DNA from: Eledone cirrhosa
Lineage: Eukaryota
Direction of reading: 5' to 3'
DNA length: 64,000 bases
Assembly (NCBI GenBank): GCA_964016885.1
Contig: CAXHJY010000252.1
Location: forward strand, 1-64,000
Below the pieces are notes generated by a model that had not been told where the DNA came from, searched no databases, and saw only the letters and a list, made by a program, of their open reading frames with translations. Of this stretch, positions 58,631 through 59,517 are shown piece by piece. The position numbers and the translations under genes are program-made. The number at the start of each line of letters is the position of its first letter. Position 1 is the first letter of the stretch.

Positions 58631-58635
<5 letters not shown>

Positions 58636-59517
58636 TATGAAGAGAGAAGAAACATTTAGATATAATTAGTAATAAAATGTATCATACCTAAACTGCTCCT
58701 AAATTCCTCGACTACGTAGTTTCGTGGCATAAACAAAAACAATATATCATAAAGATATAGAGTCCCTGCGAGGTCTGCCGACTTATCAAGAGGATACCTC
58801 ATTTTACTAGTCTCAAGAATGCGTCTACACGACGTGAGAAAGAATCCCAAAAGGCGGAGGGGGAGATAGTCACGCGATATAACGGTCGAGAAACAGAGCT
58901 AAGCCTCCTATAACCACGAAGAAAATACCACGGAGGCGGAGGGGGTATTCATATCGAGGCCGCAGAAGAGGTGGTGAAGAAGGCTAGAAGTATGAGTAAT
59001 GGAAGCTTTCCAGTTGTCCCCACACCTCAAAGATTGCTCGACCAGAGGGAGTTATTAACAATATATTTAGAAACACACAGATACATGCGGACACACACAT
59101 ATATACATGAATGCATCCGCACCCAACTGTGAGTTAAGGGTGCCAACTTCACCGATGTTGCTCAATGAATGACCGGGACAGACCAATTCAGTTGAACTAG
59201 ACTGAACCAGTATCAGAGTTAAAAATACATTATGAAGAGAGAAGAAACATTTAGATATAATTAGTAATAAAATGTATCATACCTAAACTGCTCCTAAATT
59301 CCTCGACTACGTAGTTTCGTGGCATAAACAAAAACAATATATCATAAAGATATAGAGTCCCTGCGAGGTCTGCCGACTTATCAAGAGGATACCTCATTTT
59401 ACTAGTCTCAAGAACGCGTCTACACGACGTGAGAAAGAATCCCAAAAGGCGGAGGGGGAGATAGTCACGCGATATAACGGTCGAGAAACAGAGCTAAGCC
59501 TCCTATAACAACGAAGA
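58631..59517 (-). mobile_element. Retrozyme-like 1.5-mer tandem of a 595-nt non-coding unit with two HHRs
   Basis: 58631-58922 is almost identical to 59226-59517. HHRs at 58705-58794 and 59300-59389. Confidence 0.85.
58705..58794 (-). ncRNA. Type I hammerhead ribozyme with U3-A8 compensatory core (second copy 59300-59389)
   Basis: tcctc-TTGATAA-gtcggca...tgccac-GAAA-CTACGTAG-TC-gagga. Confidence 0.8.

Follow-up and report, generated by a model that had tools for sequence, protein, structure and literature searches.

A young, high-copy tandem retroelement with U3-A8 hammerhead motifs in Eledone cirrhosa, probably copied from a circular RNA

The window (the whole 64,000-nt stretch of Eledone cirrhosa DNA analysed here) contains, near one end, two direct repeats that each carry a hammerhead-like motif. 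This raises the question of whether the locus is a local duplication, the terminal repeat of a coding PLE or a copy of a retrozyme and, if the last, from what kind of RNA template such copies are made. A first-pass annotation had favoured a retrozyme that gives rise to a circular RNA.

The two repeats, on the minus strand at 58630-58922 and 59225-59517, are 293 nt long with a spacing of 595 and differ only at 58820 and 58915, which confirms the near-identity and the period reported in the first-pass annotation. The sequence GAAACTACGTAGTC occurs on the minus strand at 59318-59305 and 58723-58710, and exactly 595 nt (59304-58710) lie between the two GTC sites. The earlier description of a tandem unit bracketed by two hammerheads is accurate for this interval, but the insertion as a whole (58630-59517) amounts to only 1.49 units. 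The features of the locus are as follows.

58630..59517, minus strand: whole insertion (unit positions 383-595, 1-595 and 1-80)
59225..59517, minus strand: 5' repeat, consisting of the truncated unit, hammerhead 1 and 80 nt past hammerhead 1
58630..58922, minus strand: 3' repeat, consisting of hammerhead 2 and the terminal 80 nt
59300..59389, minus strand: type I hammerhead 1 (core TTGATAA at 59384-59378; predicted cut after GTC at 59305)
58705..58794, minus strand: type I hammerhead 2, identical to hammerhead 1 (core at 58789-58783; predicted cut after GTC at 58710)
58710..59304, minus strand: 595-nt monomer between both predicted cut sites (42% GC; folding z = -5.9; no ORF)
58630..58634, minus strand: 3' end at site a (+80 past the cut site), running into (TA)n
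59056..59065, minus strand: site b (about +245), the family's second fixed 3' end, unused by the window copy
58583..58629, no strand assigned: (TA)n microsatellite, the insertion target, adjoining the 3' end of the insertion

The window copy has one arm only, with its 3' end at +80 and a 5' truncation at unit position 383, and no target-site duplication is discernible around it. Given this truncation, release of a monomer from this copy would likely need an outside promoter. When the unit is read as a circle, the longest stop-free stretch is 80 aa, in keeping with the earlier observation that there is no long ORF; the 302-nt spacer between the repeats is non-coding and contains no ORF for a PLE reverse transcriptase (RT) or GIY-YIG domain. 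The monomer, with a GC content below 50%, has a predicted fold far more stable than those of its shuffled versions. A TATA-like motif is located 3' of a C-rich stretch (window 58946-58953, minus strand; unit 352-359) and resembles one upstream of the hammerhead in a PLE of 758 aa described below. Older copies have the canonical form of this motif and the youngest have an A>G change in it; it is a candidate promoter only.

Inspection of each hammerhead identifies stem I (TCCTC/GAGGA), the core, a long stem II, GAAA, a palindromic stem III and the GTC site. The claim that these are complete minus-strand hammerheads therefore stands for the parts and the cut sites, but the core is TTGATAA (U3-A8) instead of the canonical CTGANGA, stem II has a long extension, and Rfam misses the motif (no hammerhead match at the gathering score, nor at E<=10). 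A U3-A8 covariation of the core has been reported for the hammerheads of Schistosoma PLEs (PMC4209133). The double-hammerhead fold that had been proposed is reproduced in part: when the 887-nt minus strand is folded in silico, the palindromic stems III pair together over 10 bp (predicted duplex -14.3 kcal/mol vs +1.5 for a single hairpin), but stem I is unformed in this minimum-energy structure. Taken alone, the 111-nt motif does not exceed its shuffles in stability (z -0.6). Of 364 copies, among them those of a subfamily about 76-79% alike, 358 have an intact core. One stem I pair varies between U-A (310 copies), U-G (14) and C-G (16), with no C-A among the 20 rows listed; covariation across nine diverged copies does not exceed that in shuffles (219/500).

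The 14-mer GAAACTACGTAGTC has 8,149 matches in the genome of 3.0 billion bases compared with seven for a control, which excludes a chance motif. A DNA search returned 96 places at 94-100% identity among the best 40 of 1,639 candidates scored. The first 100 matches of the 14-mer correspond to 52 loci, 20 of them with a tandem pair (periods 587-607), and extrapolation from these gives a family of about 4,000-4,200 loci. Arrays of up to about 12 units per arm exist, and in the older subfamily the unit length, ribozyme and ends are all unchanged. The search for multimeric arrays that had been suggested is thus positive, and a one-off duplication is refuted by the thousands of loci. Judged by sequence, the locus is a copy of a young, high-copy, non-coding tandem retroelement that falls within the definition of a non-LTR retrozyme, with a type I motif of the U3-A8 kind in each unit and predicted self-cleavage; at this level the first-pass reading is supported. 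Its expectation that 595 nt is unusually long is not: retrozyme units are given as 150-450 bp in a 2020 survey (PMC7229834) and as 51-972 bp in a 2026 preprint (bioRxiv 10.64898/2026.07.22.740005). Some whole insertions have been copied along with their flanks by local DNA duplication (L056-L060, L184). Closed-cycle contigs of 620 and 621 nt (unit length plus 30) occur in two sequencing runs; they are not used as evidence here because tandem DNA gives an identical shape.

The way in which copies are inserted was analysed in 117 insertions with at least 92.5% identity to the window unit, older copies being left out; the set was partly chosen for long arrays or high similarity. The 3' ends are fixed in 183 of 188 arms (99 at +78 to +85 and 84 at +243 to +252 past the cut site). 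Nearly all abut (TA)n, and both end types finish in TAT. Seventy-one insertions consist of two arms head to head, 67 of which combine one +80 end with one end at about +245. The same holds for unselected young loci, where 21 of 42 are inverted and 20 of these 21 pair both end types. The 5' ends, by contrast with the fixed 3' ends, are scattered: those at the cut site number 3 in 188 arms vs 1.9 expected, and no 5' run-off at the GUC site, as a sign of in vivo cleavage, was seen among them. Arms range from 0.2 to about 12 units. All the features of a PLE-type insertion are present (5' truncation, an inverted 5' copy, one-sided extension and a microsatellite target), as listed among PLE traits in PMC8557442, and the two fixed 3' ends agree with the two internal starts seen in vitro as described in PMC11167929. 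The window copy would accordingly have been started by reverse transcription at site a (+80).

An origin of the inverted arms by fold-back is disfavoured since the arms end at different fixed sites and, in locus L099, each arm has sequence absent from the other. In some insertions both arms stop at one unit position, even in different rounds (L092, L088, L030, L028 and L149), which may reflect a break in a common circular template. The two start sites are paired in one helix in the alignment fold (10-12 of 12 sequences) and also in the first 300 nt of the young unit. This candidate helix shows no compensatory change in the alignment and is absent from the folds of the full circle, an old copy and both PLEs considered next.

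A PLE fragment adjoining one copy led to a young PLE family with a 713-aa frame (44,497 candidates, of which the best 150 were scored). By inspection it has the motifs of the Hydra clade (RWR for RWK, DKT and CxCX5C); a homolog search with the protein returned 481 relatives, and Pfam gave no match for it. This family also targets (TA)n and has two ends 89 nt apart, which are paired in inverted copies. A motif scan revealed no canonical hammerhead in it; the Hydra clade is described in PMC8557442 as always carrying one. The terminal repeat of a second Hydra-type family, of 758 aa, carries a canonical hammerhead. Both are young and very abundant, with open frames (for example, in L121, L129 and L219). 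Neither has DNA similarity to the retrozyme, and further PLE families exist in the genome. In the loci translated or searched, no PLE ORF is joined to a retrozyme unit, and PLE fragments near copies are neighbouring insertions where inspected; the possibility that the repeat is the terminal repeat of a coding PLE, raised in the first-pass annotation, is thereby refuted. The helper is probably a PLE protein of the Hydra clade. The window itself includes, at about 60260-60470 between (TA)n runs, a tiny inverted insertion of the 758-aa PLE terminal repeat whose arms have different ends.

The variation between copies carries a strand-specific signature. Inherited variant sites were counted in 95 loci with concordant copies, leaving out eight common sites of unsure polarity and the chimeric locus L100. 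Among the 95 sites, 29 are A>G on the ribozyme strand vs 17 T>C (p 0.0005), in a unit that contains 130 A and 212 T. If the sites of two more diverged loci and one doubtful site are removed, the counts become 23 and 14 (p 0.002). Tree parsimony yields 129 changes, 63 of them A>G and 14 T>C, a count inflated by flips at common sites; A>G recurs at sites 157, 175, 353, 359, 438, 479 and 549. The excess is weak for variants confined to one locus (14 A>G vs 13 T>C). Changes in single units, which include assembly errors, comprise 12 A>G and 28 T>C of 187. Thirty A>G sites are enriched in a 5' U (17/30 vs 34/105) and depleted in a 5' G (1 vs 27) and a 3' A (1 vs 28). These neighbours fit the preference of ADAR. 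Pairing is not significantly higher at the edited sites (p 0.13 and 0.08). In the autonomous PLE used as a control, A>G is not in excess and accounts for 5 of the 60 shared changes in the ORF. The copies thus appear to preserve A-to-I edits made on RNA. The A>G excess lies in changes inherited by the units of a locus together and not in those of single units, as a repeatedly read monomer predicts, and the pattern favours a circular RNA as template.

The organisation of the arrays bears on the same question. We compared 146 full units taken from 36 loci that had been selected as long arrays. Units of one locus differ at 1.5 positions (0.8 in comparisons across arms) and units of different loci at 8.0. 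There are no inserted letters at the unit junction in 421 contexts, the exceptions being one 2-nt loss nearby and one unrelated case. The 3' ends are located past the cut site, so the template must span the junction and would be either a circle or an uncut multimer. We put at roughly 70% the probability that the insertions were copied from a circular 595-nt RNA by a Penelope-type enzyme into (TA)n.

The main alternative retains the element and its PLE helper but takes as template an uncut linear multimer transcribed from an existing array, with a hammerhead that is slow or dispensable; array uniformity would then derive from uniform source loci and duplication at the DNA level. Several arrays can be understood in this way. 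Nine of the 35 with three or more full units carry variants in only some units; in L099 the two arms contain identical series of distinct units in the same order, patterns alternate in L098 and L163 (period 2 and period 4), and L100 switches subfamily. These mixed arrays imply that multimeric templates, or later duplication of DNA, also occur. The lack of run-off at the cut site suits an uncut template as well as a circle, the anole PLE uses uncleaved RNA in vitro and ribozyme mutants still insert there (PMC11167929), and the preprint reports cleavage in only one of nine retrozyme dimers. With a multimeric template, however, edits should be scattered in single units, whereas it is the whole-locus changes that have the A>G excess and the single-unit changes that do not. 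Moreover, 26 of the 35 long arrays have no variant shared by a subset of their units, and the core is conserved across subfamilies. As a general explanation of the family we consider an uncut multimer unlikely.

A linear monomer, or a molecule somewhat longer than one unit, could also be read repeatedly if the RT jumped from its 5' end to its 3' end, making a covalent circle unnecessary. This would likewise copy the edits of one molecule into many units. Jumping is nevertheless improbable in view of the junctions, which have no added letters, the lack of a pile-up of 5' ends at the cut site, and the 3' partial unit, which carries the edits of the inner units in L093, L097 and L163. Finally, the family could be a minisatellite that was amplified as DNA and whose hammerhead-like motif is dead or arose by chance. 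This reading could draw on the missing Rfam match, the non-significant covariation and the DNA-level duplication in some arrays, but it is largely refuted, and can hardly be credited, given that the loci are dispersed, lie in (TA)n targets, include inverted arms and have 3' ends that are fixed and 5' ends that are ragged, and given the strand-specific A>G bias.

With a circular template, the cycle could run as follows. A multi-unit locus would be transcribed on the ribozyme strand, as suggested by the strand-specificity of the A>G bias. Two hammerheads are predicted to pair via their palindromic stems III and then to cut out the monomer, which a host ligase would close, by analogy with other retrozymes; the structured circle might occasionally be A-to-I edited. 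A PLE protein would nick (TA)n and prime cDNA at either of the sites +80 and about +245, or at both with one for each strand of the target. Ends at these two positions are observed in the copies, and the chemistry of nicking and priming is what they suggest. Reverse transcription would go round the circle and stop variably, leaving 0.2 to about 12 units per arm, and the two cDNAs would be joined in about half of insertions, giving the head-to-head structure seen in the genome. In its most complete version, ADAR edits the ribozyme-made circle, a PLE dimer primes the two fixed sites, and the edits fill the units of both arms. We regard this combination as having somewhat less than an even chance. 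If true, the family would record rolling-circle retrotransposition in the genome, RNA editing would be a main, directional mutator of the element, and the arrays would settle the circular-template step for PLE-driven elements. An RNA-circle template for PLEs and retrozymes has been proposed since 2014 (PMC4209133, PMC7229834), and a family with thousands of copies, fixed starts, candidate helpers and shared edits makes the question testable both in sequence data and at the bench.

The element resembles metazoan non-LTR retrozymes, as presented in PMC7229834 and the preprint, in its head-to-tail non-coding units with a type I hammerhead in each, its GC content below 50%, stable fold and co-occurrence with PLEs, and its unit size within 51-972 bp. 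It differs from them in its U3-A8 core and long stem II, and a search restricted to CUGANGA would be expected to miss this motif, which suggests that U3-A8 families are undercounted where retrozymes are surveyed with the canonical core. Neither a pair of fixed internal starts nor two-armed inverted insertions nor an A>G editing signature is described for metazoan non-LTR retrozymes in the portions of these sources available to us. In addition, 24 of the 57 Xenopus families of the preprint match known elements, nearly all PLEs, whereas no matching PLE terminal repeat was found here among the two PLE families compared.

Similarities to PLEs are also extensive. With the Hydra clade, as characterised in PMC8557442, the element shares (TA)n targets, 5' truncation, partial tandems, an inverted 5' copy and an extension at one end, but it has no ORF, and its end-to-end extension is about 165 nt compared with 30-40 bp in that account and 89 nt in the 713-aa PLE. 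As in Anolis Poseidon PAc (PMC11167929), there are two internal RT starts downstream of the hammerhead, an AT-rich target, and cutting and extension of both strands. In PAc, according to the same report, the start lacks homology to the target and uncut RNA serves as template. In the present family each of the two ends finishes in TAT and runs into (TA)n, and a circular template is favoured by the data. The hammerheads of Schistosoma Cercyon PLEs (PMC4209133) share the U3-A8 covariation, short stem I and long stem II; they are described as minimal, heterogeneous and mostly single, while those studied here are uniform, have a 10-nt palindromic stem III and form tandem arrays. Plant LTR retrozymes (PMC4918200) similarly have two ribozyme-bearing direct repeats, a non-coding middle and a circle of similar size. 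They are, however, reported with type III ribozymes, true LTRs and 4-bp duplications, as opposed to the type I motif, variable 5' ends, multimers and absence of a discernible duplication found here; the paired repeats of the window copy are a by-product of a truncated tandem.

We view the combination of a tandem U3-A8 ribozyme, a 165-nt start spacing and an editing record as a variant within the known retrozyme class. No family with this combination is described in the sources consulted; related ones may appear in the supplementary material of PMC8557442, of PMC4209133 and of the preprint. Literature searches on retrozymes with A-to-I editing or ADAR returned nothing relevant, and those on octopus hammerheads with Penelope showed no such family among the papers listed.

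Other hammerhead-like motifs occur in the window, outside the element, as follows.

59583..59697, plus strand: decayed hammerhead in the 5' flank; its stem II is very long and it belongs to an unrelated repeat family
1849, 12872, 48431 and 48631, plus strand, and 47663, 54467, 55239 and 61469, minus strand: hammerhead-like motifs of a further family

Relatives of the decayed hammerhead that look intact are found in L124 and L100, with an identity of about 70%. The further family, with at least eight motifs in the window, has a canonical core and an AT-rich palindromic stem III. Elsewhere in the genome, two more U3-A8 hammerhead families occur, one in L102 near position 236 and one in L129 at about 6400-7700, the latter in short tandem and inverted arrays.
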